Shown: positions 33,640 to 64,000, counted from the stretch's first letter. The stretch: DNA of 64,000 nucleotides from Balanoglossus misakiensis (GCA_040954595.2 CM082586.2:4223125-4287124); one strand, 5' to 3'. Program-made: numbers and translations. The notes: generated by a model from the letters alone, not told the origin.

Positions 33640-36600
33640 TCAATTAATTTCTGTGTTGTACACCACTTCAAATTTGAATTTTGGGAAAGGCAAGCGCTCT
33701 ACAATTTCCGGCTGAAATTCCGTGTCTTTCCATTTCTTTTTCATTTTCCGATCACCGTTGGCATACTCCACAATGAAGCTGGATATCTTAATGACAGGGA
33801 AGTGCTGAGGGGGAGTAGCTATGCCCCAGTCTTGCTTGCAGCTTTTACAGTAGATTTTCAATATTCCAAGATCCCTTTTGTTTTCTTTAGTATGTTCCCG
33901 AAATTCAAAGTTGCCCTCAACGATATCTTTATCTCGGATGAAATGGTTACAATCAAACTTGTAAACATGGCTGCCTTTGCAGATGTACTTACTGCATCCC
34001 CGACAAAACAGCTTTATTGAATCAGCAGCATTTGCACTCTTTTTGAGATTCTGTTTTAACTCTTGATCGCAGCGGTCGGCAACAACTTTTGGCTGAATAT
34101 CGCGAATTTCGTGAAGAAATTCATCTATTGGCATCTGCTGGACTAAATCAGTTGCCTTTTCAACTTGTTGATCCAGCAATACATTTACCTTATCTTTCGA
34201 AGCAGTCTCGTCATCACCTATGAAATGCACTTTGCTCTCTTTGGCCCTAGCGCGCCCTCGTGACTGCCTCATGGAAATTTCATTGGTCGCGTAATTATAC
34301 CGGATCACCAAGTGGCATTCCGGGATATCTAACCCTTCCTCGACAACGCTTGTTGCTACTAATAATTTGTGCTCTCCTTTTGAAAACCGTTTAAGAGCTG
34401 TATCTTGAACACTCTGTGACATGCCGTCATCTTTGGCTTGGACCCCTGTTACTATAGCAGGGTTCAAGACGGTCAATAATTTGTCGTCTTTGATGCTGTC
34501 ACAGACTGCCTTGGCAAGTTTTCGTGTCTTCACAAATATTATCCCTGAAAAATAATTTATATACCATATATATCAAAATCAGGAAGGTGACAATATTCTA
34601 AATTTTGAGTGTAAAACCAATGCTTACAATTCACACATAAATCTTTTCAATATTTTTACCTCGAAGATTCTGTCCATTCTGATTAATTTCTTCTTTCAGA
34701 ACTGACTTCAGTGCATCAACTTTGGGATTGGAATATTTCTCTTCCTCTTCACTGATGTCATACAAATAACTGCAATTTCCTGGATATAAAGAGGAATATT
34801 TAATAAGTCATAGTCATAACGACCGTCCACGTTTGATTTATAGTTTAGAAACTAGATGTTGTATACATGCCTTTTCATAAGTGTAACGCCCTCACGCAGT
34901 CATCAGACAAACATTTTGTAGACATACTTACTTTTAAATTGTTTATACAACCATTTCTCAATCTCGGTTGTCTTGTGTTGACCGCGCTGTAACCGCTCAC
35001 TATAGAAGCCCTCTATTATATCGAGGGCATCTGTCATTCTACACAAACTGCTCATCTGCAAAGCTGCACAGAATAAACATTTAGAGAAGATTAATTACTT
35101 GATTTATTAAAGATCCAGTAAAGCTGATTTTTAGCTTTCTTTCAGTATATTTCTTTCAGTATTTCTCCCATCCATCTTGAACTCCAGTTTCTTGTTTTAC
35201 TCGCTTGACAATTTAAGACTTTGAATTTGAAGGTGTATTAATTTCAAACTTAAATGGTCATTAATAAACTCACTGACCAAGTTCACAAAAGCAAAAGAAG
35301 TTTAGGGTATCTTTCGGGTGCAAAACTTACCCGTGTTGTATTCTCTAAGATGCTCACAACACTTGGCTTCCTCATGGCGATTTCCACTCGTGGCAGATTT
35401 TAACGCTTCTATGATGAACGTCTCGTATTTTTGAGTTCCTCGTTGAAAACCTCCGGACAACCCAGCTTTCTTTTCGATTTCCACCATTATTTCTTCTACT
35501 TTCTCCTTGAACGGGTCTGGGTTTCGGGCATCGGGTATCTTCGTGTATTTGTCGGGGTCGTTGGTGACCGACCTGAGCTCTTCTTTGTTTTTCTCGTCCT
35601 GCACGGTGACGAACGCGTGCGCGTCTAAGTTCGCGCAAAGCTTCAAGATGTGGTCTCGGGCGGCGCTCAGCCCGCTCTTGCTGCCAGAGCCAGGGCTGGC
35701 TGTCAGGCCGACGATCTGCGGCAGCTGCAGGGCGGGGTTGGCCAGCTTCAAGCGCAAGTACTCGGTCATGATGACGTTGTACGGGTGGTTCTTCGTGGCG
35801 TGGTGGCACTCGTCGATGATGATCAAGGAGAACTTGTCGAGCGACACCTTCTTGTCGTCGAGGCTGTTCTTCAGGATGCCGCCGGTGGTCACGACGACGT
35901 CGTTGACGGCGACCAAGATCTCGAAGCCCGTGGTGCTCAGGGACGCGCCGCTCCGCTTGGCGATCTTCAGCAGAGGGAAGTACTGCTTGAACCGCTTGTA
36001 GGTCTGGTTCAGCAAGGGGATGCGGTGGACCAGAAATATGACCTTCAGCTGGCTGGACGTGTCGCCGGCATCTGCGTCCGACAGCCTCGCTTCCTCGGCC
36101 AGTGCCAGGTCCATGTGGTGTTTGGCGATTCTCATGGCTACGTGGGTTTTCCCGGTACCAGTTGGTGCGCAGATGATGCAGTTATTACCCTTAAGGGCCG
36201 GCTGCGCGAGTTCCTCCTGGTAGCCACGCATTTCAAGCTTTTCATACTTGAGTTTTGGTTTCCTGTAGGAAAAAACTCAAGTTCGATTTTGGCATACACA
36301 TCTATAAAAACCATACTATAATAAACTATTAAGTATACTATTAAGGAAGACACCTGTATTTTGATCACATCCTTGACCCAAATCACAGAATACTTGCCAC
36401 ATACAGACATTGACAGAACTAGAATCAAACATTTATAGACAATACTATGCCAGATTTAAATACTTCTGTGTATACATACGTGTCTGATTGTGAAGTACTA
36501 GCGCTTGAAGAAACTGTTCCATCGGACGTTTGGTCTTCTGTTGATTGAACATCTTCCCTGGTGCGACCAACATCAGCCGCTGCCCTGGCCTCTCTGACAT

Positions 36601-38917
36601 CCCTTGTCTCCATGGTAACAGCAGCTACATGTAATACAAACAAAGAAATAGAGTGAATTTCAAGTTTATAGACTATCAGCTTTTTTAAAATGGCAGGAAA
36701 GTTTGATCAGATAGCCACTGTCATTGCACAGAACCCTGGATACATAAAGGCACATGCTGAGCTAATGCACCTACGAGTATAATTAATTGCATAGTATAAC
36801 CTTCATATCACTCCCCCACCCCCCCCCCCCTCTCTCTCCTCCCCTGAATGAAAGTTTCAGAGTACGAAAACGTGACAATGAATGCTTCGAAATTTTGACA
36901 CACCTCCGCGATAACATTATCTGTTCCAAGGAAGGTATTTTGAATTTGGAAGGAAGTACTTACATTTCTTTGCTTGGCCATTTTTTTCTTCCTTATGATA
37001 TTCAGACATAAGGCCGTCTTCTTCATCGTCTTCAATGATCTCCCCTTCAATTATACAGTCTTCGTCATCAGTGTTTTCAGACTGTGAGACATCATCTGAA
37101 ACCAATACACATACACACATACAGTCAGAAACTTGGTCAGCTCTGCCATGTTGTAAGGCGCTGGTTGCAGTATGGACCGTGGCTGCCAATAGGAACACCA
37201 AAGCTAACAGCAGCGCCTAACTCTACATCTGTTTTCAATCAGATTGTACAATCACTTGACATCACACACATACCCTTTTCGCCACTCTTGGATGATTTCT
37301 CGACGTCCGTCGGTTGCTCAGTCTCAGTCGCCTTGGGAATTAAGGTATTCCCACTTCCCACTTGCACAGTACTGCCTGTGCCGACACTGACGTTGACGAA
37401 ATACTGGTTCAAGGTCAACGGTTTATCCTGTTCGGGGTTACCCCCAGCTGATGGTACAAGTCTTCCGCCATCCTCAAAATAGGTGCCAGCTGTGTAAGGG
37501 GGCGGCTGTTCGACAGGAGCACTCCCAGCGACAGTTAATCGCACATCTGCAGTGAAGAAACCCAGGCAAGAAAAAACAGTCACTTCTCATGACAGGTCAC
37601 ACTGACCTTGTGATCATTGTTGTAATTGGCACTAATCAGTGATGTAATTATGACATCACAACTACAGTTGTTTGTGGGGATACTGCTTATGTGTGCAACA
37701 ATTTTTAAAACCCCAAATTTCGCTTTTCAATTTCATGTTTCTTGAAAATATCTATTAAAACATTGTTTAAACGGTTTATTAAAAATCACTTGCCTTTCAT
37801 GGCTGCTTCAAGATCAGTGACATTGATAAATCCAGGTACGACTCTCGTTCCAGCTGGTGTTGTCACTGCCGATGTTGATGGTGGAATGTGTGCTGACTGG
37901 AGCCCTGTATCTGTTGGACCTTCTGCGTAGCTGGCACCGAATGTTGCAGATCTTGAACAATTGGGTCTCTTTTCTTCTTCTTTACAAGTTAAAAATTCTG
38001 TACTCATTAAAAGAAAAATCTAGTTTCAATTTCTTTTTGATAACTTGATCATTTTATATTAAATGCAGAACAATCTGCCTGTCACAGAAGATTTTATTTA
38101 ATTATACAAATTTCCAGCAAGATAAAACATTACACCCAGCTTCCAACATAAAGGGTATCAGGTCACTTTTTATTTACATATCAATTATCATAATCAGAGG
38201 GATGCGTCTACTAGTGTCCAAATTATCATTTGGTGCCACATTTTTTTTTCGTGTGAGCCACCCACTGAAAATCTGTGATTGGCTACAATTTCCATGGCAA
38301 CAGTATTTAAATATCATCTTGAATACACAACATTCGGTCTGACGACGCCCCCATCGGTGAAAAGCAATCACATCCGGGTCACGCGGGGTCACTTAAGGAC
38401 AAGTCCGTGTATCAAATATGGACACACCTAGCAAAAACGAAAGTAGCGTGTATCTTTATATCCTTGATCAGTATCCCACTTTAAAATAATCTCCGTAGAA
38501 AAGGGACCATGTCAGTATACTTCTGTTTGAATTTGGGGGGTTATACATGCAAACATGCAGGTAAAAATAGAGCTCACCTTTCTCCAAATCCGACGCCAGG
38601 TGCGACAGTTTAACGTCCTCATCCCTCAGAGCCACAAGTAACGTTTCATACCAATGGTCGCGGTCTTTCTTCATTAAGAAATCTATTAAAATCATGGCCC
38701 CGCGGATAGGGCCCTTGTTTCCTTCTTGAGCTAATATCTCCTCTTCTTCCGGACGTGTTAGACATGTTTTGAGACACGGTATGATGTGCGACGGCACGAT
38801 GTCGCGGATAAACTTTTGCCGCAGTCGACGTAGCGCAACTACTTCTGGGGGGTCTTCATACTCCTCCACTTCTTTCCCTTCTCTCGCTACAGCGCCGTAG
38901 TTGAACGGGGTCGCCAT
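33640..38917 (-). CDS. RIG-I-like receptor (RIG-I/MDA5 family DExD/H helicase): one CARD, RHIM-like linker, helicase, pincer and C-terminal Zn-binding regulatory domain; 9 exons, ~1060 aa
   Basis: Exons (minus): 38917-38578, 37997-37794, 37546-37274, 37095-36964, 36624-36480, 36262-35331, 35063-34932, 34779-34660, 34544-33640. All junctions are phase-compatible and sum to 3183 nt. Helicase motifs intact: APTGTGKT (I), DECHH (II), GLTASPG (III), IIFVKTR (IV), ATSVVEEGLDI (V), QSRGRAR (VI). CTD has LFCRGC...IYCKSC...DWG and KKWKD. Exon 1 is CARD-like (LRRLRQKFIRDIVPSHIIPCL...WYETLLVAL). Orthology to DDX58 versus IFIH1 cannot be resolved by eye. Confidence 0.93.
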
Positions 38918-42900: not shown

Positions 42901-45278
42901 GAAAACAAAGCTTTAATTCGAACAATCATACTAATGAAAAAAATCCCTTATCCATCTTTAATACTGCAGTGTTGTTTCCACGCTCTGCGTCACTTCTCAA
43001 TTGGTTGAATATTTCACATATTCCAAGGAAGCCCATTCAGTACTTCATTGACCTAGCTGAAGACACAATCGCATTGAGGAAAAATCAGGATGCTTCAAAT
43101 AAGGTGAGAATTGTATCACTGTACATAATTTATTTATACATGGTCTATGGCGTTGCTGAAAAACTTGAGATAATCACAACTTCTAATATGAAACAGACTA
43201 CTGATATTTTGCCTATTTAATTATATTTACCGCTACAAAATATGTATCTAGATAGAATACCGTATGCAAATCACAAACTATATATTCCAGAGGGTAGACT
43301 TTCTGCAATTGATGTTAGATGCACATGATGTGTATGAAGAGTACATCAAAGGAAATGAAGCAGAAGAGGACGAAAATGGAGTTAAACTGGTCAAAGATGG
43401 CAAACCACACACAGGCGATTTGCATAAAGGGTTTACAAAAGAAGAAATATTGGGACAGGTACGCTTTTGGGGTTTCACACCCTGGCATTTATGGGCCATG
43501 GTGGGCGGAAGTTGGTCCTGGCGCTTTTTTTCCCATGATTCAAATTACAGTAAACGCCATATTGGAAATTCTGCCAACTTTCTCTCGATTTTGTAAAAAA
43601 TCGCGCGACTTATACATGGCGAACATGTTTTTTCTGAAAGAGTGACCTCAAAGCTACCAAATTATGTAGAAATCAGCTACGCCGGATTTCCCCTTTAATA
43701 CGGTAAATACATAAAAAAAAGTTTTGGCAGCTATGCAATGAAGTCTATTAGGAAGGAGGCAAATACTAATGGCATGTCAGTGTGACTGTAGAATCTGACA
43801 TTTGACCGTTCTTTGTAAAATTATCTTTGCAGGCGTTGACCTTTTATACGGCTACGTATCACACGACAAGCACTTTGTTGAGCTTTGTTTCTTATGCCAT
43901 GGCAACCACACCAGAAGTGCAGGATAAGTTGTGTGCTGAAATTGATGACGTCATGGCCAACTATGACGAACCGACCTATGAGGCTATCTCCAAGATGCCA
44001 TATTTGGAAATGGTCATCTGTGAAACTCTAAGAATGTATCCTCCTTCGACAAGGTGAGATGGGTACCAATCTGACCCTTGACCTGTTGACAGCATAATTG
44101 TCCCATCGGCCTCGCAGCTCGCATCGAGTTCAAAAGTCATGACGACGGCGTGAGGGCGCTTGACTTGAGAAAAGGGCGTATTGGCCTACAGTGTTTGCCA
44201 CTTACATATAACTGTAATACCTCACCGATATCATTGACTTCTTTTCAGGTTTACCAGAGTATGTAATGAAGATGTCACTATTGCTGGTGTACACATTCCT
44301 AAAGGCATGATGGTTAGTTTTCCGATATATGCGATCCACCACAATCCGGCCATCTACCCAGAACCAGAAAAACTCATCCCAGAAAGGTAACAATTTTACC
44401 AGGTTTCTCAAAATCTCGGCAAGATTTGTGGTTGCATTTACAGATTAAAAGTTAAATGTTTTATCTTTTCTTCGATTCCGTCAAAATAGGCCACTCTGTA
44501 GATTTGAATTATGTATTATATTTTTGTTTTGAAAATATGCATTAAAATATATTCATTAAGACATAGTACATGTAATGTCTAAAATGGTACATGTATTTTC
44601 TGTGGACTGCAACTGTAAGCTAAGTACTTATAACCTATGCAGCACCACGTGATGACAGACATAACATTGTAATTTCATCCAAACCCCCACTCGGTTTATC
44701 TGTTTAACGTCAAAACGTTTATTTAGATTCACCAAGGAAGAAAAGGAGAAACGCCATCCTTATGCATGGATACCATTTGGAGCTGGACCTCGAAATTGTA
44801 TTGGAATGAGATTTGCTCTCCTGGAAACTAAAATTTCACTGGTCCGTATCTTCCAGAAGTTCACATTCGAGCCATGTGCAGAGACAGAGGTAAGATAAAC
44901 ATGATACTGGGAGTGTGGGATCGCCGGGCCCAAACTTTTTAGAGCTTCGTAAATCCGAAAGTAAAAAAAAACAAACGATGTCAAATATACAAAATTTATG
45001 AAAATTGCGCGAATCATGCGAGAACTATGACGTCATTCTCTTACACTACGGCGGCCAGAGAAATAAACTAAAATCGCAAAATATATTTTTCCCTACCTAC
45101 CCACCCTTTTTTTCGAAAAACATGTAATCAGAACAGCACATATTTTTTTTTTTGCCTTACTTAAATATTTCTTCATTTTCTACGTTTGACATTCTCCCAG
45201 ATCCCCATGAAACTTGGAACATCTATAATGTTATCACCTCCAAACGGAATTAAAGTGGGTGTGAAGGAAAGACGGTGA
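39961..45278 (+). CDS. Cytochrome P450, CYP3 clan (CYP3A-like), 13 exons, ~523 aa
   Basis: Exons: 39961-40031, 40828-40921, 41031-41083, 41298-41394, 41750-41866, 41976-42064, 42522-42670, 42970-43103, 43291-43458, 43833-44053, 44249-44386, 44727-44889, 45201-45278. All GT-AG and phase-compatible, 1572 nt. Shows N-terminal TM anchor, GIPGP hinge, WKRTR (WxxxR), RVDFLQLM, ETLR (ExxR), PERF and heme motif FGAGPRNCIG. Most intron positions resemble vertebrate CYP3A. Confidence 0.93.
40180..40347. mobile_element. MITE-like element in CYP intron 1
   Basis: TIRs TGTAAAACACTTTATTTTCGCGAG (40183-40206) and CTCGCGAAAATGAAGTGTTTTACA (40322-40345), 23/24 match; internal TTTCGCG subrepeats; TA-flanked. 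Confidence 0.8.
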
Positions 45279-46963: not shown

Positions 46964-48598
46964 TTAAATACTGGGGTCTTCTGGTGAAAGTTTGGCATCA
47001 GGGTGGTGGGCTGACTTGTGTCGGACCATATCCCGTTTGTAGACGTATTCTTTATCGCAAAGATCGCACGCAAAACGCTTCTTTCCCGTGTGCTTGTGTT
47101 TATGTCCCAGGAGGCTGTCGTTGCGATTGAACGACTCCCCGCATTCGTCACACTCGTATTTCTTGGGTTTCTTCTGCAACTGCTTGAGTTCTTGGAGTCG
47201 GGAGATTTTCGGGGCGATTTTGATGATGGGCGCCTCCGGCGGCAGGGCGGCCGGCGGCATCACGGCGTGCACCTGGCGTCTGTGCCGGTGCAGGTCGCCC
47301 CTGTAGAAGAAGCCTTTGCAACAGCGGTCGCACACGTACGGCCGCTGGCCCGTGTGCGTGTAGCGGTGCTGGCGGAAGCAGTCGCGGGAGGAGAAGCCCT
47401 TGCCGCAGTGGTCGCAGCGGAACGGGCACTCCTCCAGGTGGGTCAGCTGGTGGCGCGAGAGGTCGCGGCGGTAGCTGTACGCCTTGCCGCACGTCCCGCA
47501 CCGGTGGGGTTTCACCCCCGTGTGGCAGACCGAGTGCTCGCGGAGATAGTCCGGCCGGATGAAGCTCTTGCCGCACTCGGCGCACACGTAGAGGTCGGTG
47601 CCCGTGTGCACCTTCATGTGGTCCTTCAGCGACTTGGGGTACACGTACGACTTCCCGCACTCCCGGCAGATGTAGCGCTTCTCCGAGGAGTGGCTGGCCC
47701 GCGCGTGGTCGCCCAGCTCCTTGACGGACGAGAAGATCAGCCCGCAGAACTTGCACACGCAGACTTTGGACTGGGAATGGAAAATGGCGTGCTTGTTGAG
47801 AGCGCGCTTGCTGCGGAACGTCATCGCGCAAGTATGACATCCGTACGCTCCAGTGTCAGCCGTTTCGTCACCGCTCTCCTCCTCCTCCATGTTGCCGCGG
47901 GCAACAGCATCGTCATCTGCTTCGTCCTGCCCCGTTTCGATGTGTCCGTTCGAGTGAATGGCGCCATCTCCTGTTTCAGTTTTGACAGGATCTGTCGGCC
48001 TGTCCTCCCTGTCAGGGAGTGACTGTCCTCCCGCCGACTGCAAGGCCTTCACCTTATCCAGGATGGAGCCGGAACACATGTTCACGAAATCGTTGCACCC
48101 TTTGCAGAGCGACGGCACTCGGAAGAAAGCGGCCGCCGTCTGCAGAGGCTGGAGGTTGTCCAGGGTCAGGTCGATTTTCCCCGTGTACAGGAACTGCAGA
48201 AGCGCGTCCACAGTGGACGCGGCGATCTGCGTGATGGCCACTTCGTCGGCCTCCGGGCGCGACTGGAACATGGTCAGGAAAAACTCGCTGGCGCTCGCCA
48301 AGACCACCTTGTGACACAGAAACTCCCTCTCCTCCACGATCACCTTGACGTCGGTCAACATCCCCTGGCATCGCAGAAAGTTCAGCTGATGCATCATGGA
48401 GGTGTTGTACGTCGGCTCGACGAAAGTCCAACTCACTAAGCCAGGCAGTCGTCCAAACCTGCTGGTTATTAAATCTCTAGGAACAGTTTCTCTCTGACCG
48501 GCATCCCCTTGGGCAATGTGGATTACAATTGATGGGTTATTAGCATTTATGTTATTGAAGTGCTCATTCGTGGCTTGGCTAATCTCCATTGTTTTCAT
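46964..48598 (-). CDS. BTB/POZ domain + 9 C2H2 zinc-finger protein (ZBTB-like), single coding exon, 544 aa
   Basis: BTB signature LNFLRCQGMLTDVKVIVEEREFLCHKVVLASASEFF...LLQFLYTG; nine CxxC...HxxxH fingers with TGxxPY-type linkers. Acceptor (ttgccag) at 48602-48604; candidate 5' non-coding exon donor AG|GTAAGT at 49104. Confidence 0.92.
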   Translation of the reverse strand: MKTMEISQATNEHFNNINANNPSIVIHIAQGDAGQRETVPRDLITSRFGRLPGLVSWTFVEPTYNTSMMHQLNFLRCQGMLTDVKVIVEEREFLCHKVVLASASEFFLTMFQSRPEADEVAITQIAASTVDALLQFLYTGKIDLTLDNLQPLQTAAAFFRVPSLCKGCNDFVNMCSGSILDKVKALQSAGGQSLPDREDRPTDPVKTETGDGAIHSNGHIETGQDEADDDAVARGNMEEEESGDETADTGAYGCHTCAMTFRSKRALNKHAIFHSQSKVCVCKFCGLIFSSVKELGDHARASHSSEKRYICRECGKSYVYPKSLKDHMKVHTGTDLYVCAECGKSFIRPDYLREHSVCHTGVKPHRCGTCGKAYSYRRDLSRHQLTHLEECPFRCDHCGKGFSSRDCFRQHRYTHTGQRPYVCDRCCKGFFYRGDLHRHRRQVHAVMPPAALPPEAPIIKIAPKISRLQELKQLQKKPKKYECDECGESFNRNDSLLGHKHKHTGKKRFACDLCDKEYVYKRDMVRHKSAHHPDAKLSPEDPSI

Positions 48599-50251
48599 AA
48601 TCTGGCAATGAAATGAAAGCAGAATAAAATTAAGTTATCACAGTACATTCAGGCTTTTCATTGTTTCAATGATCAGATGAAGAGTGAAATTCCAAATTAT
48701 CTGAAAGTCCCAACCATTGTGACCTCCACTGACCTCACTGAACTCGACAGGTCTTGTTCGGCCACGCCCACCCTGTCTCGACAGACCCCCAGCAGAGCCC
48801 AGACGAGCCGCAAGCTCAAGTTACTACGGAGCAAAGCACGGCCGCGCACACCGGTTCCACCTTGTACCACGTGTAAATTCTCACTCAAAAGTAGCGCCTC
48901 TACAGCTGAATATCTTTCTCTGACATTAGAACAGAGCCACTGCATGGCATCACCAATGTTTATATCAAATGCTATCGCCATTTTGTGCGTCTGTCGACAG
49001 TCTCACCCGCGCGCCGTTGCGTGCACGCTCCAATATCATTGCACATAACCTCAATTTTACGTGACAACTAAACTGCACTACTTGCTGTTATCGAGGAACT
49101 TACCTAGAATAAGGCGGCTCCGGAATTAAAGCGTGACATAGGCAGTTACGAGTGTTTTCAAAAGAAAATTTATCAAATAGGCGAGGCCACAAAACCGGGC
49201 ACTATGCATGTATATTACGCGTAATTGTCAACCGTAGGAGGCGCACTGCAATAAACAAGATCCGCGTCAGCTGCGCGCGCACGCAGGAACATTTCACCGT
49301 GCCCACGGCAATATCAGTGAAAACCCGATATTACTTTCTCTTTGAAGCGAAAATGACCCAAAACAAAATGCTAAACTTTTATAGGGGCAATATCTTTGTT
49401 TGATAATCAGTCCTCGACAGACCATGGTCTACGATACCATGTACGGACGTGTTTTTTCCACGCGAAGAAAGTTTTTACCATAAGGATTTGTCCCTATATG
49501 GACTATTACTTATTCGAATACAAAACCATCAGTTACGTTTAATAGATTTCTTCTTTGTGGATTGAGGTTACCTTTCCACTTACAATGTACTATTATATTT
49601 GAAACAAAATAAAAGCCATAATACACTACGACTTGAAAAACTCTTGACAACTGTGTATGCCATGTGCATTTCAATCATCATATCTTGGATAGTACGCCCC
49701 CTTGAGTCAACTTTCTGAATATAACCTCTGACCCGAATCGTGGCGTCAACCAGCTCATCAGTGGGTACGGGCTACAAATTCAGTGATCCTGTAAAAAGGA
49801 AAGAAAGGTGAGATATATTTTACCGTTAGTTGCAGTGCACATGTAGTACTTACACGGTGTACAGGCGACAGAATCTCTGACTGCAAGGCTGTGCCACAGG
49901 CGGCTCCATAGTTGCGCTTACAGTTATACCAGACCTAATATTTAGGGCCACAGATTCTTCTATATGGATTGTTTATATCGTGGCAGATAGTGCATTAAAA
50001 ACAGGAAAGTTTAGCCATCGTGTTAAACCTCAAGGTTTGGCCCGGTAATGCCACAGGTAAAACGTCACAACCCCAACACCAAGGCAAAAGACAGACATCA
50101 TCATGGTAACCATGACAACATTTAGAATCAGTGTTTATTGTGCTTTGCCACCAACATTTCAGTCCGTGCACCGAATTAAGATTAGCCCGAGACAGGTAAT
50201 GATATCAAAATGTGTATCTTTTCAGGATATAAATGAATTTGGCTGTATACT

Positions 50252-51451
50252 ATGGAAACACTGGAAGTTCTGTGCAATGATAATCAAACACATGTAACCA
50301 TGGAAACTGAGAATTCATGCTATGTAGTGGTGGAGGAAGGTGTCGAAGACGGCATCGCCTTGTTGCATCGCGATACGAGTGTCGATGAACATGCAGAGAA
50401 TCATGAGGAGGACGAGCGCAAAGAACTCGCTTCACACAACAAACAGAAAGCCAAACGTGTCAGTACAATATCCCTCAAGTCAGAGGCAACCTGGAAGTAC
50501 ATAGGAGAAGGCCATGGCCAGGCCGTGCTCTCGCGTTTTTCAAAGCTGAGAGAGCAGTGCCTGCTGGTCGACGTGGTCATAAGCGTGAACAAGAGAAAGT
50601 TTCCCTGCCACAAAGCCATTCTTGCCAGCTGCAGCGACTTCTTCTGCGAGATTTTCACCCAGTCCGCCAAGAGGCACCCGGAACGGAGCGGCGCGAAGTT
50701 GGAGACGTTTGTCGTCAAGGAAATTCCCGTGACCACCATGGAGCAGTTCTTGGAGTTTGCGTACTCCGGGTCGGTCTCCATCAACAGGAAGAATGTGCAG
50801 AACTTGCAGACTGCCGCCGAGTTCTTCAAAGTGCCCCTGCTCGCCCGGGGGTGCACTGAGTTCATTCAGAATTACATGTACACGGTAACCATGAGTGGGG
50901 ATCCGGTTGTAACCGGTTCGCTGAGTTCCTCTGGAAATCTGGTTGCAACCGGTTCGCTGAGTCCCGCTGGGTCGAGCGTGTCAAATCAGGAGACTCGTGA
51001 GGCGGCCGAGACTGCCACTACACACAATGGGGAAGAGAGCCACTTATTCATCTGCGGGAAGTGCAGCAGGACATTCCAGACCAAGTTGATTCTCAGTCGG
51101 CACCTGAAAGCCCACGGGGCCGAGGGGGACGAGAAGAACAAGTCCGACCGGGACTCGAGCGGCTCGTCAATACACGTGCCCCGCAGGATCAGGGGCACGA
51201 GGGACCCCAAGCAGCAGATTCACAAGTGCGACAAGTGCGGACGCGGCTACAAGTACAAGCACAGTCTGCGCGAACACAAGCGGAAGCACGACAAGTGGTA
51301 TCCGTGTACGCAATGCGACAAATCGTTCGGACGCAAGGATCACCTGGAGGGCCACAAAGTAAAACACATGGAGAAGTCGAAGCGATTTAATTGCACAAAG
51401 TGTCAGCAGGCAGTCGGCAGCCTGAAAGAACTCAAAAAACATCTTTGTTAA
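50252..51451 (+). CDS. BTB/POZ domain + C2H2 zinc-finger protein (3 full fingers and a terminal CxxC...H-x-C finger), 399 aa
   Basis: BTB signature FSKLREQCLLVDVVISVNKRKFPCHKAILASCSDFF...FLEFAYSG; acceptor tcttttcag at ~50225 just upstream; divergent from the 46964-48598 gene. Confidence 0.9.
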   Translation: METLEVLCNDNQTHVTMETENSCYVVVEEGVEDGIALLHRDTSVDEHAENHEEDERKELASHNKQKAKRVSTISLKSEATWKYIGEGHGQAVLSRFSKLREQCLLVDVVISVNKRKFPCHKAILASCSDFFCEIFTQSAKRHPERSGAKLETFVVKEIPVTTMEQFLEFAYSGSVSINRKNVQNLQTAAEFFKVPLLARGCTEFIQNYMYTVTMSGDPVVTGSLSSSGNLVATGSLSPAGSSVSNQETREAAETATTHNGEESHLFICGKCSRTFQTKLILSRHLKAHGAEGDEKNKSDRDSSGSSIHVPRRIRGTRDPKQQIHKCDKCGRGYKYKHSLREHKRKHDKWYPCTQCDKSFGRKDHLEGHKVKHMEKSKRFNCTKCQQAVGSLKELKKHLC

Positions 51452-53283
51452 GGAAGTACACACAGAATGCAAAATTGTATACAGTGAAACCTGTCAATAC
51501 GGACATCTCTCAAAGGACATACTGTTCAAGACATATTAAGTTAGTTTAAATAGAATATTACCTGTCTATTGTAAACTGCTTGTGTATTTCTTCTTTTTGT
51601 TATACAGTAATAAACTTCTAAAAAAGTTATAAAGATCAGAGAAAGTCTAGAAGTGAAATAAACTGTACTATTTGTTTGCCCTGAGAGACTGAGCTGTGTT
51701 ATTACTGTGCACTTTCTTGCAACCATAAATAATTTAATCTCATGCAAGAAAGTGGGAAAATGCAAGGTTAATTGGCACGTCAGAGATTGTCACTTTCCTG
51801 TGTCAGTTTCGTTATCAGCTGCAGCCAGCTGAACCCAGGTATCTGAAATCATGTGATACCGACATGCTGAAACCGAGGCTGATGTGAATTGCGCGAAGAA
51901 TTCCGATTCTGATTCTTTTCAGTTCTGGTAATTTCTTCCCATCCTCTGTTTTTTTCATGACAGACATTGTACTCTGCCTTAAGTAGCCTACACTATTAAA
52001 TGAACTTCGGTGATAAATTGGTCGCGCAATATCAGCGTCTTACTCATTGTTACTCGTATAAACTGGGCGTGAACTGAATATTCAAAATTTTGTTCTAACC
52101 CGTTGGTGGCGTCCATTCTAAACATTTTTCTTTGGTTGTAGAACGAAAAATAAAGAACTTTAACTGTCCAACTATAACTTATGCATGAAATATGTTTCAG
52201 TTGGAAGACCTGGTGAAACTGAATCCGTGTTTTTTTGCCCAAAACGCCATGAAAACCAATCTAAAATGTTTTGCGTCAATGACCTTTGACCCATTGACCC
52301 ATACTCGCGCCACCAACGTTGAGCGCTGAATCGACAGTTTGTGTTTCCAATGCTGGCAAACTTCTTCGTTTTTGAGCGCCGTTCAATCATTTTGACACCA
52401 ATCATCAAATCACGTTAGATCTTGGAATACCAGGTATGATTTTCAGATTACTTTCCTATGACCACAAGTTTTTTTTGGGGTCATTAGACCAGTAAATGTG
52501 AGTGACCTAATCCAAGCTTGGCCGCATTTAGTCATGAATGCCAGTCGAAACCAAGCCACGCCATTTTGCATAACAGTTAGAAACCGAAATCGCACATATG
52601 TCGTGATTAGTCAGACGTTTCGATAACTTGTGTGAATTTGAACTTGGTCCCCTCGTTTTAGTGCTTTTTGTGGAATTCTTCATTTGTCGTGCGCTGGTGG
52701 GATGGGGAAAATCTGAAATGGTGACCGTGAAATGTACATGGCGACATGTAGTACAAACTGGTGTAAGCAACACAACTTCGACCTCCACAGACTGCATACT
52801 GCGTGCTGTACGGATCCCAGATATCTGTACTTAAATTCTTGCAAGATCCATTACTGGAAAAAAATCCGAATGTGGATACCCGGTACTATCTATTTCCAAA
52901 ACAAATATTGTTTTCTTGTTGAATGTTGATATCTGGCTGATTTGAAAAAAAAAACAACAACAACAACACAACAACTAAATGCAGTATTGTATAAACTCGG
53001 TAATCACATCAAAAAAAGCACACAAGAGTGTGAGCTCATAGATTAGTATTCTTTTTGGCCTGTATAATACGAGTTTACTTACCTAGCAATAAAAGTCTGA
53101 TATTTTTGGACAAATGTTAGAAATACAGTATTATGTGTGTGGATTATTTTTTATATTTTTGACGATATGCCCATGCTCACACCTGCCTCGGATAAAATAA
53201 GAAGAAATATATTTCTGGTTTTATTACAGGTCTAATTGTATCTCCATGTAAAGAACAATCCCCCTCTGAATTGAAGTGACACA

Positions 53284-55644
53284 ATGACGTCTGCAAAAGC
53301 CGTAACCTTTGAGTGGGAGTACAGAAACCCTGGCCACCCCAGCTCAGTCCTGAACAAGTTGAACGAACTGCGCCTGAAGTCATTCACGACCGATGTGGTG
53401 CTGTGCATTTCCGAGAAGCAGTACCCGTGTCATCAAGTGGTGCTGGCGAGCTGTTGCAAGTTTTTCATGGGGTTCTTCTACGAGAAATCCGAGAGCCAGG
53501 AGATGGCCGCGACCATGCTGGAGGGTATGAACGGCAACTTGTTTGAGCTGTTCCTGGAGTACATCTACACTGGGTGCGCCAAACTGAACACGGGCAATGT
53601 CGACGACGTCTTGCAGATAGCCGAGCGCTTCGAGGTTGAATCACTCATCGAGGGGTGTAAACAGTTCCTGCAGAATACAGAGTCTGAGAAAAAAACTGTA
53701 GACCCCGCTGTTGCGGTCAATGACGAGGAGCAAGAACACAGCCAAGTTGAAGGTCCCGCTGTTGTGGTCAACAAAGAGGAGCCAGAACACAGCCAAGTTG
53801 AAGGTCAAGATCATGACTATATTGCCTCGAGCAGAAAACCCAAACGCGGCAAGTCTGCCGAAGATGATGACCCTGACTATGATGTACAGGATGACGAAGA
53901 TTCTCCCGACGAAGCTGAGGTAGCCGTCAAGGTGGCAGTGTCCGGCAAAAGTAAGAGGGTCCGGAAACCGACTGCACACGGCCGGGAATACATGGCGAGC
54001 CTGCGACGAAGTACCACATCCTCAAGGTCTCCCCGAAAGTGTGCGAAATGCGGGAAGAGTTTCTCCTCCAGTTCGAGTCTGGCGACACACATGAGGACCG
54101 ATCATGGGGCGGATCTTGGCGAGAAGACAGACACCCCCGCGGTGACAGTGGACGGTGCCAGCAGCGATTCCAAAGAGCCACCGAAGAAGAGAGCGAAGGA
54201 GACAGAAGACCCAGCCGAGGAGGGTGCGCAGAAAGAACGAAGATTCAAATGTTCCAGCTGCTCCAAATCCTTCCATTCCAACGAGGGGCTGATCAAACAC
54301 GAACGGACTCACACGGGGGAAAAGCCCTACGAGTGCCCCGAGTGCAAGATCGGCTTTTCCGTCTCCTCCAACTTCTACAAACACATGCGCATGAAGCACG
54401 ACGTGGACACCAGCACGGCGCGCACCGAAATCCTCAAGAAGTCCACAACGGGCTCCGGGTGCCGCCAGCACCTGCAGAAGAAGTTGCGCGACTGCTCCGT
54501 TTGCAAGATCTCTTTCTCGTCCGTCAAGTCCTTCAAGCAGCACATCCGCGAGGTCCACCCGGACGATTTGGATCTGTTCAAACCGCCGTCGTACAAGTGC
54601 GACTACTGCCAGAAGACGTTCAAGTGGCAGAGCGCGCTGAAGGACCACATGAACGTGCACACAGGCGAGCGGCCGTACTCGTGCGACCTCTGCGGCAAGC
54701 GCTTCAAGTTCAGCCAGAGCGTCAAGTTCCACCGGACGCGCGTGCACGAGAAGAGCCGCCCCCACAAGTGCCACCTGTGCGACAAGGCCTTCAGCGTGCT
54801 GGCCAACCTGAAGATGCACCAGGTGTGCCACACGCGCGAGCGGCGCTTCCTCTGCGACCTGTGCGGCAAGGCCTTCGCCTACCCGCAGAGCCTGGCGCTG
54901 CACCGCCGGACGCACGGCGCCGAGAAGACCCTGCAGTGCGACCTGTGCAGCAAGCTCTTCAAGCTGAAGAAGCAGCTGCTCAGCCACCGCAAGTACGCGC
55001 ACACGTCGGACAAGGTGGCCTGCGACGTCTGCGGCAAGATGTTCAGCAAGCTGTACATCGACAAGCACAAGGTGCACCACCTGACGGAGCCCCAGCACGA
55101 GTGCGACGAGTGCGGTAAGATGTTCCGACTGCAGAAGGGGTTGAGGACGCATAAGATGACAGTTCACAGTGAGGAGCGGCCGTACGTGTGCGACGTGTGC
55201 CGCAGAAGTTTCAAAGACCGGTACCTCCTGAGGAAGCACGAGCTCCTCCACTCGCGCCCGTACTCCTGCGGCGAGTGCAAGCAGGGCTTCAAGACGTACG
55301 AGAGTCTGGAGAAGCACCTGAAAACCCACAAGCGCAAGTTCAGCTGCAAGAAGTGCTCGCACAGCTTCAACCGGGCGGAGCTGCTGGAGAAACACCTGCG
55401 AATCTGCACGGTTGTGCAGACGGACGAGCCGTACCCGAAGAGCATCGTGTCGTCGCCCCCGGCCGCGGCGACGCCCAGCGCGCAGAGCGTACAGAGTGCG
55501 CAGAGCATCCTGAACCTCATACAGACCGGCCTGCAGAACCAGGGCGAGCCGGGGCAGACCCACACCATCATGATTCCCGTGCACACCGACATCGACGTCA
55601 TCGCAGCTGTGGCCAGTCTGCAGGAAGTGACTACGTCAAACTAG
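53284..55644 (+). CDS. BTB/POZ domain + 14 zinc-finger protein (ZBTB-like), 786 aa
   Basis: BTB signature LNELRLKSFTTDVVLCISEKQYPCHQVVLASCCKFF...FLEYIYTG; acidic linker; 13 C2H2 fingers and a terminal C2HC finger. Acceptor ttttattacag ends at 53229; candidate upstream non-coding exon donor CAG|GTATGA at 52433. Confidence 0.93.
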   Translation: MTSAKAVTFEWEYRNPGHPSSVLNKLNELRLKSFTTDVVLCISEKQYPCHQVVLASCCKFFMGFFYEKSESQEMAATMLEGMNGNLFELFLEYIYTGCAKLNTGNVDDVLQIAERFEVESLIEGCKQFLQNTESEKKTVDPAVAVNDEEQEHSQVEGPAVVVNKEEPEHSQVEGQDHDYIASSRKPKRGKSAEDDDPDYDVQDDEDSPDEAEVAVKVAVSGKSKRVRKPTAHGREYMASLRRSTTSSRSPRKCAKCGKSFSSSSSLATHMRTDHGADLGEKTDTPAVTVDGASSDSKEPPKKRAKETEDPAEEGAQKERRFKCSSCSKSFHSNEGLIKHERTHTGEKPYECPECKIGFSVSSNFYKHMRMKHDVDTSTARTEILKKSTTGSGCRQHLQKKLRDCSVCKISFSSVKSFKQHIREVHPDDLDLFKPPSYKCDYCQKTFKWQSALKDHMNVHTGERPYSCDLCGKRFKFSQSVKFHRTRVHEKSRPHKCHLCDKAFSVLANLKMHQVCHTRERRFLCDLCGKAFAYPQSLALHRRTHGAEKTLQCDLCSKLFKLKKQLLSHRKYAHTSDKVACDVCGKMFSKLYIDKHKVHHLTEPQHECDECGKMFRLQKGLRTHKMTVHSEERPYVCDVCRRSFKDRYLLRKHELLHSRPYSCGECKQGFKTYESLEKHLKTHKRKFSCKKCSHSFNRAELLEKHLRICTVVQTDEPYPKSIVSSPPAAATPSAQSVQSAQSILNLIQTGLQNQGEPGQTHTIMIPVHTDIDVIAAVASLQEVTTSN

Positions 55645-56388
55645 CGTCAATCTCGCTTTTCCATCAGTGACAGTAATCAATCAAGAAAAGCCCAGAAATG
55701 CATACACATACTTTGAAACGAAATTATTCATTCAGGGAAAAGATAGAATGTTTCAAATTCACCAGTCTTACGGGGCAAGACTTGTAGTTTGACTAGTACG
55801 TTACATGTATGGTGTGAAATCTTGGCTGCCATTTTCTCCTTGCTGCCGGGATTAGTGCAGATCTTTGCAATTGTCTTCACACACACGCGCAGGCTCTTCA
55901 AAGAATATCAACACTCGGAAGACACTGTGAACTGTCATCTTATGGGACTTCAGGACTTTTCTCTACACAAATATGACATATTTGACAAATGCATTCAGAG
56001 AAACCAATTGTTCAACCAATGCATATATATACAGTACTGGTAAAATAATGATAACACTTGTTACTTTCTTAGTTTGTACTATGGAATTTTTAAACAAACT
56101 ACACAATGGCACTAAAATAGCATATCAAAACAGTGCTTATTGCAAAATTGATTTTATTGCATGCTTGTAAATGCTGTATTTCTACCAGATTTGAACATGT
56201 GAAAAATTAGAAAAATATGAAGGGGGCTCTTGCCTGAATTGTTAGCTTGGATACGTTTGAAGACTTTCACTTCAACTTGCTGAAGTATAAAGGCTAAAAA
56301 TGGTGCATTTATTTATTTACAACTAAATTGATCAATTTATACGACCCAAGTTATTCTTCATGTACTGGTTGTTTTCTGTGATTTCCAG

Positions 56389-57129
56389 GCCCGCATAAGT
56401 GTACTCACTGCGACAAGACCTTTAAGTTTCCCAGTGCTTTGAAAGACCATCTGAATGTCCATACAGGAGAACGGCCCTACGAGTGCGACGTGTGCGGAAA
56501 GCGCTTCAAGTTCACCCAGAGCGTCAAATCCCACCGTAGGAGCGTCCACGACAAGAGCCGCCCCCACAAGTGCGGTCTGTGCGGCAAGGCCTTCTTCGCG
56601 TGGTCCGCCATGAAGGTTCACATGGTGAGCCACACAAAAGAGCGGAGTTTCCTCTGCAGTCTGTGCGGCAAGAGCTTCGCCTACAAGCACAGCCTGAACC
56701 TCCACTCGAAGTCGGAGCACGGCCGGGCGGGGGAGACGTCCAAGTGCGACGTGTGCGACAAGACGTTCCGGACGCAGAGAAAGATGCGGCGACACAAGCA
56801 GTACGCCCACGAGTCCGACAAGGTCCCCTGTGATATCTGCGGGAAAGTGTTCTCGTCACAGTACATTAAGAAACACCAAAGCGTGCATACAAGTCCGGAG
56901 CAAGAAGGAGATGAGACTTCGCAGCATGCCGCAGTGATTCTCAAGTGCGCCGTGTGCGACAAGACGTTTGGGACAAGGAGAAGGTTGCGACGCCACAAGC
57001 AGTACGCCCACGAGTCAGACAAGGTCCCTTGTGAGATCTGCGGGAAAACTCTCTCGTCCCAGTACATTAAGAAACACCAAAGCATGCATACAGTTCCGGG
57101 CGTACGGGAACAAGGAACTGACGTGTCTG
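56389..57129 (+). CDS. Zinc-finger cassette exon A (8 C2H2 fingers), symmetric phase 1-1, 741 nt
   Basis: Acceptor tgtgatttccag|GCCCGCATAAG and donor TCTG|gtaaga; open frame (x)PHKCTHCDKTF...EQGTDVS; paralogous to fingers 5-10 of the 53284 gene. Upstream partner exon not established. Confidence 0.75.
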
Positions 57130-58332
57130 GTAAGAAATTAAAAATAAACTACTGCACTGGCACTGGACTAGCGTATTAACTCTTAACAGTGATAATGGCA
57201 GGACTTTACATGAAGCTGAACAGGCAAACGTGATTTTTATTGCATGCTTGTAAATACTCTATTTCTTCCAGTGGTTCTGTATTCTTTGTGTACTAAATCC
57301 TTTTTTTTGGTGTGATTTCCAGGCCCACATAAGTGTACTTACTGCGACAAGACCTTTAAGTCTCCCAGTGCATTGAAGGACCATCTGAATGTCCATACAG
57401 GAGAACGGCCCTACGAGTGCGACGTGTGCGGAAAGCGCTTCAAGTTCACCCAGAGCGTCAAATCCCACCGTAGGAGCGTCCACGACAAGAGCCGCCCCCA
57501 CAAGTGCGGTCTGTGCGGCAAGGCCTTCTTCGCGTGGTCCGCCATGAAGGTTCACATGGTGAGCCACACAAAAGAGCGGAGTTTCCTCTGCAGTCTGTGC
57601 GGCAAGAGCTTCGCCTACAAGCACAGCCTGAACCTCCACTCGAAGTCGGAGCACGGCCGGGCGGGGGAGACGTCCAAGTGCGACGTGTGCGACAAGACGT
57701 TCCGGACGCAGAGAAAGATGCGGCGACACAAGCAGTACGCCCACGAGTCCGACAAGGTCCCCTGTGATATCTGCGGGAAAGTGTTCTCGTCACAGTACAT
57801 TAAGAAACACCAAAGCGTGCATACAAGTCCGGAGCAAGAAGGAGATGAGACTTCGCAGCATGCCGCAGTGATTCTCAAGTGCGCCGTGTGCGACAAGACG
57901 TTTGGGACAAGGAGAAGGTTGCGACGCCACAAGCAGTACGCCCACGAGTCAGACAAGGTCCCTTGTGAGATCTGCGGGAAAACTCTCTCGTCCCAGTACA
58001 TTAAGAAACACCAAAGCATGCATACAGTTCCGGGCGTACGGGAACAAGGAACTGACGTGTCTGGTAAGAAATTAAAAATAAACTACTGCACTGGCACTGG
58101 ACTAGCGTATTAACTCTTAACAGTGATAATGGCAGGACTTTACATGAAGCTGAACAGGCAAACGTGATTTTTATTGCATGCTTGTAAATACTCTATTTCT
58201 TCCAGTGGTTCTGTATTCTTTGTGTACTAAATCCTTTTTTTTGGTGTGATTTCCAGGCCCACATAAGTGTACTTACTGCGACAAGACCTTTAAGTCTCCC
58301 AGTGCATTGAAGGACCATCTGAATGTCCATAC
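56445..58332 (+). repeat. Tandem segmental duplication, 934-bp period, two apparently identical copies including the intron
   Basis: 56445-57398 matches 57379-58332 by eye; the 20-mer GACCATCTGAATGTCCATAC occurs at 56445, 57379 and 58313. Confidence 0.92.
57323..58063 (+). CDS. Zinc-finger cassette exon B (8 C2H2 fingers), near-identical copy of exon A, phase 1-1
   Basis: Same acceptor and donor as exon A shifted by 934 bp; the ORF-track proteins 56439..57179 and 57373..58113 are identical. Confidence 0.7.
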
Positions 58333-59284
58333 GGGGGAAACGCCTTACCAGTGTGACGTGTGTGGAAAGCGCTTCAAGTTCAGCCAGAGCATCAAACCCC
58401 ACCATAGGCGCGTGCACAACAAGAGCCAGCCTCACCGGCACAAGTGCGATTTGTGCGGCAAGGGCTTCCATGGTCTGTCCTTCTTGAAGGAGCACATGGT
58501 GAGGCACACCAAGGAGCGGAGTTTCCTCTGCGATCTGTGCGGCAAGAGCTTCGGGTACAGCTCCAGCCTGAGGATGCACAAGAAGTCGATGCACGCGGCG
58601 GCGGGCGAGGTCTTCAAGTGCGACGCCTGCGACCGGACGTTCGCAAGGGCAAAGCAGCTGCTGCATCACCGGCAGTACAGCCACACGTCGGAGAAGGTCG
58701 CCTGCGACATCTGCGGGAAGACGTACTCGTCCCTGTACATCGAGCGACACCGCATCATGCACGCGAGTCGGGACGTCTGGGAACACGAGTGCAGCACGTG
58801 CGGCAAGCAGTTCCAGCGGCAGAGCCACCTGCAGTCGCACCTGGCGCGGGTGCACAGCGACGCCCGGCCCCACGTGTGCGAAGTCTGCGGCCGGAGCTTC
58901 AAGTACCCCCACACTCTGAAGAAACACCGGCTGCTGCACGCCCGGCCCTTCTCCTGCGACACGTGCAAGCAGGGCTTCCTGACCCGGGAGAGTCTCGACG
59001 AGCACATGCAAGTGCACCAGCGCCTGTTCAGCTGCAGGATGTGCCGCTACAGCTTCAAAACCGTCAAGCAGCTGAACAAGCACATGACAGTGTGTACCGT
59101 AGTCGAGGGAGGCAGCGACCCCTCCGAGGGGGTCACCCCCGGGCCTTCCACGCGAAGTGCAGAGGGCATTCTGGGCGTCATAGAAACAGGGCTACCACAT
59201 TCACAGGTGATTCCGGAACAAACCAACACGGAAGTCGTCCAGGCTGTGCAAACTGTGCGGGAAATCTACACACTAAAGCACTAA
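58257..59284 (+). CDS. Terminal zinc-finger exon C (10 fingers plus C-terminal tail)
   Basis: Acceptor tgtgatttccag|GCCCACATAAG (phase 1), open to stop at 59284; colinear with fingers 5-14 and the tail of the 53284 gene (CTVV...SAEGILGVIETGL vs CTVV...SAQSILNLIQTGL). Confidence 0.8.
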
Positions 59285-62153: not shown

Positions 62154-62724
62154 CTATGATGCCCCACCTGCGAGCACTTTCTTCTGGCGCACTTTTCTCG
62201 GAATGGGTACCGACAACTCGTTTATCCGCGGAGTCGGTCTTGCGTTTCTCGCAGCTGGTGTGACTTTATACGGGTCGTAGCTGTCGTTCTTCCCCCGACT
62301 CTTCGGACGAGCGAGTTGCTGCAGTCGGATCGTGGCCAGGGCCTTCATGGCCGGCTCGGCCACCGGCCACTGGATGGGCTTCTCCGGCTGGAAGTACGCG
62401 TGCGTGGTCTTGGCCTCGGCGAGCGCCTCCAGCCTCGCGCTTCCCCCCGCCTTCTTGGCCGCCTCCGAGATCTCCTGCTGCCACTCGTCCACGTCCCACT
62501 CGCGGCTCGGTTTGATCTTCAGGGGCGCGTAGACTTTCGGCAGCGCGAGGTGCGTCACCCGGTCCGAGGCCTCGGCGCTCCTGGCACCGGCACTGACCTG
62601 GGTGTGAACTGGACGTTCCACTTGGTATTCCCGGTGCAGCTTTTTGTGTTCACTTAGAGTTTCAACGCGCTCCGAGGCAGAGCCCTTCTGCGCTGATTTA
62701 CTCACTGGCCATATTGGTGACGGT
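62154..62724 (-). CDS. THEG: Last coding exon of a THEG (testicular haploid expressed gene)/SPMAP2-like repeat protein; upstream exons lie outside the window or were not recognised
   Basis: Repeats of the type (W)xVSxxAxxAxASxRxxxLAxPK (PIWPVSKSAQKGSASERVETLSEHK, IQWPVAEPAMKALATIRLQQLARPK, PYKVTPAARNARPTPRINELSVP); acceptor tttttggcag at 62725-62727. Symbol is family-level only. Confidence 0.8.
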
Positions 62725-64000
62725 CTGCCAAAAATCAATTTGTAGATTTTTAAAATGTTGGTAATAAAATAATTACTTATTGCTCTAAGTGAAAATACAG
62801 TATTATATTTAAATATGTTATTTTGTATAATACTCTTACCTATCACCAATATAAAGCTTGGATACATATTTGGAATTGGATAATTCGGCCTGTCTTGGTG
62901 TCATTGCTGAAATTAAAATTAAAATACATTAAAAATATTTTATACATTTCTCGACAAAAATGAATGACCTCTACACATGGAGGTCCCACTGTTCAAAGTT
63001 GAAGTGTGTGTGTTCTGCCTGTAGTCTGTCATTAAATTTGATGTGCTTCAGTGAATGACCAAAAGATTTTCTCATAATGGGTGTACATGTACTGGAGTTG
63101 TTGACATTGTTAACGAACAAAAAGACCCTCGCTGAACTTGATGTCCTGTTTCTGGTGGTGGATACCAACACTCCTTCGTACATTATTAACTTTCCCACAA
63201 CAATTCTACAAAGCCTCCCTGGGCCTTTGTGGGCGATTTTAATACTAGTATATTACAACAGGCTGGACATCACAATAGTTCCCATCAACATAATAGACCA
63301 GAGTGTGTGTACAATGGAGTTTTTCGTTTGAGGCACAGCCACACACTGTGTGGAATTTGGTTTAATGGAGTTCAGATTGTTGAGTAGTACTACTCAATAC
63401 CTGGGGGACCAGTCGTGTAACGCACTGCAGAGTTGTGTGTTTTTCTCTTCATGTGACTTGCATGGTTGTGTTTAAAACACAAGATCAAAACCCTTCTTAA
63501 CAGCAAATGGATGAGAAACATCAAAATGTTGATGTTACATACAATACTTGTGTATGTGGATGACCCCAATTGTGTGTTTATCACATGGAAATCAACAGGT
63601 GTCCATATCCGAAAGATCAGCACATATACTAATAGAATTAGGGCGTGCAATTGAAATAAATTTCAGGTACTCTTTGCGTGAGTAACTGTTGTCCATGCCT
63701 ATCTGTCCCAATAGTTTACCTTTAAATATCTTGGAAGTTTGGTTTTATACCTACATTCTGCAACCGCAAATCAATAAATCGTTGGCTGGTTATTTTCAGA
63801 GCAACAACCTAAACACTGAATATTTTTTCCTGCTTGTAATTGTAAACAACAACTGCGCTGTTGTATTCTCTTGCACTATAACCCTATTCAACATGGTGCC
63901 ATAAAACACTTGTTTATACACTGCAGGTACAATTTACAGACTGCGTTTAAACCTTATCATATCGATTTATAACGACCTCTTGAAAAAGGTCAACCCAGGT

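Follow-up and report, generated by a model that had tools for sequence, protein, structure and literature searches.

A single-CARD RIG-I-like receptor of the acorn worm Balanoglossus misakiensis carries a conserved RHIM-like motif and may signal in part through amyloid

The DNA analyzed here, a stretch of 64,000 nucleotides from Balanoglossus misakiensis (GCA_040954595.2 CM082586.2:4223125-4287124) that we refer to as the window, carries on its minus strand a gene for a RIG-I-like receptor (RLR). Testing of splice sites by script yielded a model with nine exons that extends from 38917 to 33640 and encodes 1060 amino acids, with a single terminal stop. All introns possess GT-AG borders except intron 2, which is of the GC-AG type; its GC donor (37794-37793, minus strand) is located immediately upstream of the motif-bearing cassette exon 3. 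The gene model of the Ptychodera ortholog continues through the exon 2/3 junction in the same frame and includes the matching exon 3 segment. Since exons 2, 3, and 4 are each of phase 1-1, any one of them could be skipped in frame. The features of the gene are as follows:

38578..38917 (-): exon 1, with the ATG at 38917 and the single CARD, aa 27-107 (about 38839-38597); gene model, Pfam CARD_2
37794..37997 (-): exon 2, phase 1-1 with a GC-AG donor, disordered linker that includes the TFGxSYxE island; gene model
37274..37546 (-): exon 3, 273 nt, phase 1-1, module of PPxY and RHIM-like motif; gene model
37494..37505 (-): PPPY, a PPxY sequence and predicted WW-domain ligand, aa 196-199; motif scan
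37338..37406 (-): RHIM-like motif (aa 229-251) with its VQVG core at 37367-37356; gene model, RIPK register
36964..37095 (-): exon 4, phase 1-1, acidic-hydrophobic island, aa 283-298 (37066-37019); gene model
36480..36624 (-): exon 5, variable low-complexity linker; gene model
35331..36262 (-): exon 6, first helicase lobe with Walker A at aa 397, DECH at aa 515, and motif III at aa 551, plus the beginning of the insertion domain; Pfam, motif check
34932..35063 (-): exon 7, helicase insertion domain; gene model
34660..34779 (-): exon 8, junction of helicase insertion and lobe 2; gene model
33640..34544 (-): exon 9, second helicase lobe with motif VI at aa 853, pincer, zinc-binding C-terminal domain (about 34014-33706), stop; Pfam

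Pfam searches with the single exons detected CARD_2 at aa 27-102 (E 1.5e-16), followed by DEAD/ResIII, RIG-I_C, Helicase_C, and RIG-I_C-RD, the last of these (E 4.5e-17) representing a zinc-binding C-terminal domain (CTD) with both CxxC pairs. The helicase is intact: Walker A, DECH, motif III, and motif VI are all present, and so is the insertion domain. By its helicase and CTD the protein is a member of the RLRs, and the same domains suggest that it binds RNA and hydrolyzes ATP in an RNA-dependent manner. The architecture proposed in the original prediction, a single CARD followed by a linker, an intact DECH helicase and a CTD, is thus the one found in the nine-exon model and by Pfam. The position given there for VQVG in exon 3 (37367-37356, minus strand) was likewise correct and corresponds to aa 242-245; the range 37406-37338 assigned to the motif encodes aa 229-251, and the 24-aa peptide quoted with it ends at 37335. 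The linker, described as about 250 aa of low-complexity sequence, is indeed long (260 aa) and predicted to be disordered but is not merely of low complexity, since other conserved islands are embedded in it.

Cytochrome P450 exons are present upstream of the RLR gene on the opposite strand (about 43800-44900, plus strand). The window further contains a cluster of BTB-C2H2 zinc-finger genes (46964-59284), with two near-identical zinc-finger blocks (56382-57179 and 57316-58113) that point either to a tandem duplication of recent date or to a repeat in the assembly, and an exon of a THEG-repeat (testicular haploid expressed) gene (62154-62900, minus strand).

Vertebrate CARD1 and CARD2 profiles detected only one CARD in the window protein and in its hemichordate relatives; tandem N-terminal CARDs of the vertebrate type were not found. 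This CARD is well conserved (49-74% identity) and scores higher with the CARD2 than with the CARD1 profiles (RIG-I, 56 against 27 bits; MDA5, 18 against 10 bits). A degenerate CARD2 within the linker was also considered and is ruled out, as nothing scored there with the vertebrate CARD profiles. The proposal that the RHIM stands in place of CARD2 consequently lacks support: no remnant of a CARD is detectable in the linker, and the sole CARD of the protein is closer to vertebrate CARD2. Single-CARD RLRs are already known from cnidarians (PMC8998645), and from its sequence the motif has been added to a receptor with one CARD and is not a demonstrable replacement of a second. The lancelet members of the subfamily delineated below have a degenerate CARD (Pfam E about 0.1) but retain the motif.

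The RHIM core has been defined as the tetrad (V/I)-Q-(V/I/L/C)-G (PMC9444067), with a downstream Asn-x-apolar element (PMC4262963). A deep mutational scan of the RIPK RHIMs reports Y531/V450, I533/I452, I539/V458, and I541/V460 as key residues and also names M547 and N545 in RIPK1 (bioRxiv 10.64898/2026.02.19.706818); counted from the first residue of the core, these positions correspond to the offsets -8, -6, 0, +2, +8, and +6. With its aliphatic residues V234, V236, V242, and V244, together with N248 and L250, the window motif has the register of the RIPK1/RIPK3 RHIMs: the core tetrad, the upstream aliphatic pair at -8/-6 (V234, V236) that completes the nucleating interface, the Asn at +6 and the aliphatic residue at +8 (N248, L250) are all in place, and positions -10 to +8 around VQVG are free of charge and proline. 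The motif differs from the RIPK RHIMs in that it falls below Pfam detection, has Thr instead of Gly at -1, and is found on a receptor and not on a kinase.

By itself, the core tetrad is a weak signal, since it arose in 2,833 of 200,000 linker shuffles (1.4%) and occurs four times in the six-frame translation of the window. The strict full-register pattern, composed with the window sequence known and with spacings taken from the mutational scan (bioRxiv 10.64898/2026.02.19.706818), arose in none of the 200,000 linker shuffles, once among 127,996 six-frame residues, at the VQVG site, and in a single one of the 311 proteins compared, the window model. A looser pattern matched 11 of the 311 proteins (ten subfamily members and the lancelet protein P0174), a count that is biased because this pattern was composed after the homologues had been seen; the RHIM patterns matched no vertebrate RLR in this set of 311. 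The outcome of an earlier relaxed regular expression was unconvincing (11 of 214 N-termini, compared to a mean of 4.1 and a maximum of 11 in shuffled sets).

Profile and structure searches contributed less. The Pfam RHIM model (PF12721), with which the original prediction had proposed to score the linker, left the window motif unmatched: there was no hit in exon 3, in 49-aa and 28-aa pieces, or in the subfamily homologues scanned, and only one RHIM-like copy of P0174 was matched, at 16.5 bits (E 0.0064), under the cut-off of 20. Sequence searches of the PDB with E values up to 10 returned one weak match for the motif and seven weak matches for a profile of eight rows, all unrelated and with no RIPK RHIM chain among them, and queries of the ESM Atlas with exon 3 and with the lancelet motif returned nothing usable. 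The monomer AlphaFold model of exon 3 has a mean pLDDT of 52. In the AlphaFold model of the Glandiceps ortholog P0002, aa 23-120 and the helicase are folded, and aa 121-375 have pLDDT values under 50; judging from this ortholog, the flanks of the RHIM-like motif are predicted to be unstructured, as is expected for RHIMs (PMC4262963).

The six best matches to exon 6 were all acorn-worm RLRs, from Glandiceps (69% identity) and Saccoglossus (56-63%), and a representative search added a Ptychodera RLR with 74% identity; when exon 3 served as the database query, the Ptychodera ortholog was the only match. VQVG and the Asn at +6 are kept in the orthologs from Ptychodera (P0121, P0266, P0267) and Glandiceps (P0002). 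The paralogs possess the cores LQIG (Saccoglossus P0004), FQLG (Glandiceps P0005), and FNLG (Glandiceps P0006), and the lancelet proteins P0008, P0124, and P0268 have the degenerate core VVVG. Among the 12 motif copies tabulated, Asn is found at +6 in all and an apolar residue at +8 in eight (the Ptychodera proteins have His there), and the Gly at +3 is invariant. The -8/-6 pair stands at its exact position in the window protein, in P0005 and P0006, and in the three lancelet proteins; Ptychodera and P0002 have it displaced by one residue, and in P0004 the displacement is larger. Subfamily members without a clear copy of the motif are P0001/P0003, P0007, P0009/P0010, and P0077; the last, from Amphiura, contains two V-N-(F/V)-G tetrads with no Asn at +6 and was left out of the motif count. 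As judged from these alignments, three further genera of acorn worms keep the motif in their RLRs, and lancelets have it in degenerate form.

Over aa 226-250, the identity to the window protein amounts to 44% in P0002, 28% in P0004, 40% in P0005, and 28% in P0006; in the linker after the motif, the corresponding values are 27, 14, 10, and 10%. Between the window and Ptychodera proteins, the motif is 59% and the following flank 28% identical, and both the segment preceding the motif (78%) and an acidic island (76%) surpass the motif itself, which makes the motif one conserved island among several. The question raised in the original prediction, whether the motif is a conserved island in a divergent linker, is thus answered in the affirmative with respect to the following flank; the preceding segment and other islands are conserved as well. 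A profile built from the six hemichordate rows ranked the three lancelet copies as the top non-training matches among 220 N-termini (6.0, 5.8, and 3.1 bits), where the best scores in 20 shuffled sets ranged from 0 to 4.0; this ranking provides modest but independent support. Taken together, the six-position RIPK register and this conservation uphold the view that the motif is RHIM-like.

Several gene models of the relatives deserve mention. P0266 of Ptychodera flava, a 292-aa model encoded on another contig, has the CARD, the PPxY sequence, and the RHIM-like motif and no helicase, and the P0267/P0121 models from the same species end inside the helicase; P0266 and P0267 may serve as decoys or adaptors, or may stem from gene models that were split. 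In the P0001/P0003 models of Saccoglossus kowalevskii, the first helicase segment is duplicated and the CTD is truncated, which is probably an artefact of assembly or annotation.

The RHIM-like motif shares exon 3 with PPPY (aa 196-199), located 46 residues upstream of the core in the window protein, and the aa 193-250 block as a whole is conserved among the orthologs. PPxY sequences bind WW domains of NEDD4-family ligases. We found PPxY in 11 of 245 RLR N-termini, ten of them from the subfamily; its distance to the core is 45-46 residues in the window protein, Ptychodera, P0002, and P0004, and 35-37 residues in P0005 and P0006, and it is absent from the lancelet subfamily members. PPPY is also present in Amphiura P0077 and Saccoglossus P0001/P0003, which are devoid of the RHIM-like motif. 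Two further islands were noted in the linker. The TFGxSYxE island that follows the CARD (aa 132-139; 37944-37921, minus strand) is restricted to six hemichordate proteins among the 245 N-termini. The acidic-hydrophobic island DCIIEGEIIEDD (37066-37019, minus strand) is common to Ptychodera, Glandiceps P0002, lancelet P0008/P0124, and Amphiura P0077, which account for seven of the eight matches to its pattern among the 245 N-termini; we take it to be a candidate for a SUMO-interacting motif, which it resembles.

To place the receptor among its relatives, we calculated a tree from 48 helicase regions (657 columns) with SH-aLRT support. The window protein, six further RLRs from hemichordates, two from lancelets, and one from Amphiura, a caspase-fused RLR from Lingula anatina (P0009/P0010), and the Logan protein P0007 form one clade (SH-aLRT 100), the subfamily referred to above. 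It stands apart from the MDA5/LGP2 clade (SH-aLRT 100); a sister relation of the two is supported by a value of only 38, and the inner order of the subfamily is not settled. In a published analysis, Saccoglossus and Branchiostoma sequences were grouped with MDA5/LGP2 (PMC5101713). The presence of the caspase-fused Lingula RLR indicates that this clade swaps its N-terminal effectors. A search with the Amphiura helicase recovered no further echinoderm members of the subfamily, and none of 41 further proteins scored with the motif profile. P0174 from Branchiostoma belcheri, a RIG-I-side RLR with no detectable CARD, contains two RHIM-like copies within aa 250-335 and belongs to another branch, where it groups with a CARD-TIR RLR (SH-aLRT 100). 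By inference, P0174 likely represents an independent second gain of a RHIM in the RLRs.

Because the motif matches RHIMs and is conserved, the receptor likely signals partly by amyloid stacking. On balance, we lean towards a reading in which the motifs of clustered RLRs likely stack as an amyloid and likely seed a RHIM-bearing adaptor that drives immune transcription. RLRs are known to bind viral RNA through their helicase and CTD and to release the N-terminus (PMC3879448); by analogy, the helicase and CTD of the window protein would bind viral dsRNA, several receptors would cluster, and their N-termini would be freed. If the motif behaves as RHIMs do (PMC4262963, PMC9444067, PMC13506858), the clustered copies would form a cross-beta seed that holds together the single CARDs, adding avidity, and templates the RHIM of a partner. 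The output might be of the NF-kB/IRF type rather than necroptosis, and the neighboring PPxY sequence might recruit a ligase of the NEDD4 family, which would tune the assembly or clear it. A transcriptional output is weakly favored because RHIM-dependent NF-kB activation has been reported for non-mammalian RIPK1, including that of a mussel (PMC12119088), hemichordates possess NF-kB and IRFs (PMC10210618), and apoptosis terms were not enriched in Saccoglossus after exposure to poly(I:C) (PMC11251625).

Lancelets carry many RHIM-containing immune proteins (PMC4262963). The published list of RIPK1 proteins (Fay 2025, supplementary file 4; PMC12119088) includes Branchiostoma, Lingula, and Dreissena and has no entry for Saccoglossus or Ptychodera, which makes a RIPK partner in hemichordates doubtful; echinoderms and tunicates are reported to lack RIPK1 (PMC12119088). 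Within the 64-kb window, there was no other CARD or motif segment that would mark a partner gene, and a scan of 141 of the 286 flanking open segments revealed cytochrome P450 only. In an alternative that we regard as unlikely, the motif forms a true RHIM-type amyloid solely among the RLR, its paralogs, and helicase-less copies with CARD and RHIM, and clusters the single CARDs for ordinary CARD-CARD signaling with no RHIM adaptor involved. The missing hemichordate RIPK1 entry fits such a scheme, as do the several motif-bearing paralogs per genome (three in Glandiceps), the helicase-less P0266, and the conservation of the CARD. It is harder to reconcile with the lancelet proteins, whose degenerate CARD next to a persisting motif suggests, together with the RHIM-like copies of P0174, in which no CARD is detectable, that the motif may by itself constitute the output; moreover, the RHIMs described so far mostly join two different proteins (PMC4262963, PMC9444067).

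That the motif is RHIM-like only by convergence strikes us as rather improbable. It would then be a conserved non-amyloid docking element, a beta-strand or hairpin ligand of a folded partner, within a regulatory exon centered on PPxY. The failure of Pfam and the PDB to return a RHIM match, the conservation of the entire aa 193-250 block, and the other short islands of the linker are compatible with this idea, but a docking element does not readily account for the six-position RHIM register, the invariance of Gly at +3 and Asn at +6, the exclusion of charges and prolines, or the retention of pattern rather than identity out to the lancelets. That the motif is the remnant of an ancestral RHIM in decay, or arose by chance, and now serves no function, as might be read from the loss or alteration of the motif in P0001/P0003, P0006, P0007, and P0077 and from the in-frame skippability of exon 3, is very unlikely given that VQVG and the Asn at +6 are identical in three genera next to a following flank of only 27-28% identity, and given the lack of the full register in the shuffled linkers.

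The preferred reading, an RLR that seeds a RHIM-bearing adaptor, resembles several known systems in part. Like ZBP1/DAI, the window protein would be a cytosolic nucleic-acid sensor with a RHIM in a disordered region, and ZBP1 can seed a downstream RHIM protein (PMC4262963, PMC9444067). ZBP1, however, senses through Z-alpha domains, has two to three RHIMs and neither CARD nor helicase, and has been reported only from tetrapods (PMC12119088), whereas the window protein has an RLR helicase, one motif, and one CARD. With vertebrate RIG-I/MDA5/LGP2 it shares the DECH helicase, insertion domain, pincer, zinc-binding CTD, and an RLR-type CARD; it differs from them in having a single CARD where they possess two or none, in its disordered linker of 260 aa, which carries PPxY and the RHIM-like motif, and in its separate subfamily. 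RHIM proteins of Branchiostoma likewise belong to invertebrate deuterostome immunity, and in them a RHIM takes the usual place of a death-fold domain (Kajava 2014, PMC4262963). Effector swapping on an RLR chassis is illustrated by invertebrate RLRs with grafted N-termini such as DED, death, caspase, TIR, or a single CARD (PMC8662601, PMC8998645); in the accessible portions of these two papers, neither the word RHIM nor an amyloid motif as a grafted module appears. The route from receptor via amyloid motif to a lytic or non-lytic output is shared with Drosophila PGRP-LC/LE-Imd, the cryptic RHIMs of insect STING, and fungal and bacterial NLR amyloids (PMC13506858). These systems rely on other receptors and ligands, and the fungal and bacterial pairs are gene-clustered, unlike the RLR gene, which has no partner in the window.

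In agreement with the original prediction, no description of a CARD-RHIM-RLR was found among the matches listed in the full-text literature, a body that leaves most subscription journals outside, with Figure 1 of Kajava 2014 (PMC4262963) excepted: this figure, outside the scope of the search, may draw a lancelet RHIM-RLR, and the accessible text of the paper names a NACHT protein and mentions no helicase, RLR, or hemichordates. The term RHIM is absent from the portions available of PMC10210618, PMC5101713, and PMC3879448, and those of PMC7889193 and PMC11652944 add no case of a host RLR. As a real and conserved RHIM-like motif on an RLR, the arrangement is, as read from sequence, a new combination of two known modules.

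More tentatively, and with a confidence that falls somewhat short of balanced, we propose that a whole, previously undescribed subfamily of RLRs in deuterostome invertebrates may signal through RHIM amyloid, with RNA clustering the helicase, the RHIM seeding an adaptor, and PPxY recruiting a ubiquitin ligase. RLRs would have gained RHIMs at least twice, which would place a ZBP1-like sensor-to-amyloid circuit on an RLR chassis long before ZBP1 itself, a circuit that would have been lost in vertebrates. Within nucleic-acid sensing, RLR signaling through CARD filaments and RHIM signaling through amyloid are regarded as distinct branches. If our reading is true, a receptor joining both would show how invertebrates with single-CARD receptors and no interferon reach a signaling threshold, and would provide a concrete, testable pathway for the antiviral immunity of hemichordates. 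RHIM-based RNA sensing would then have existed at the base of the deuterostomes, and ZBP1 would be a later re-invention of it.
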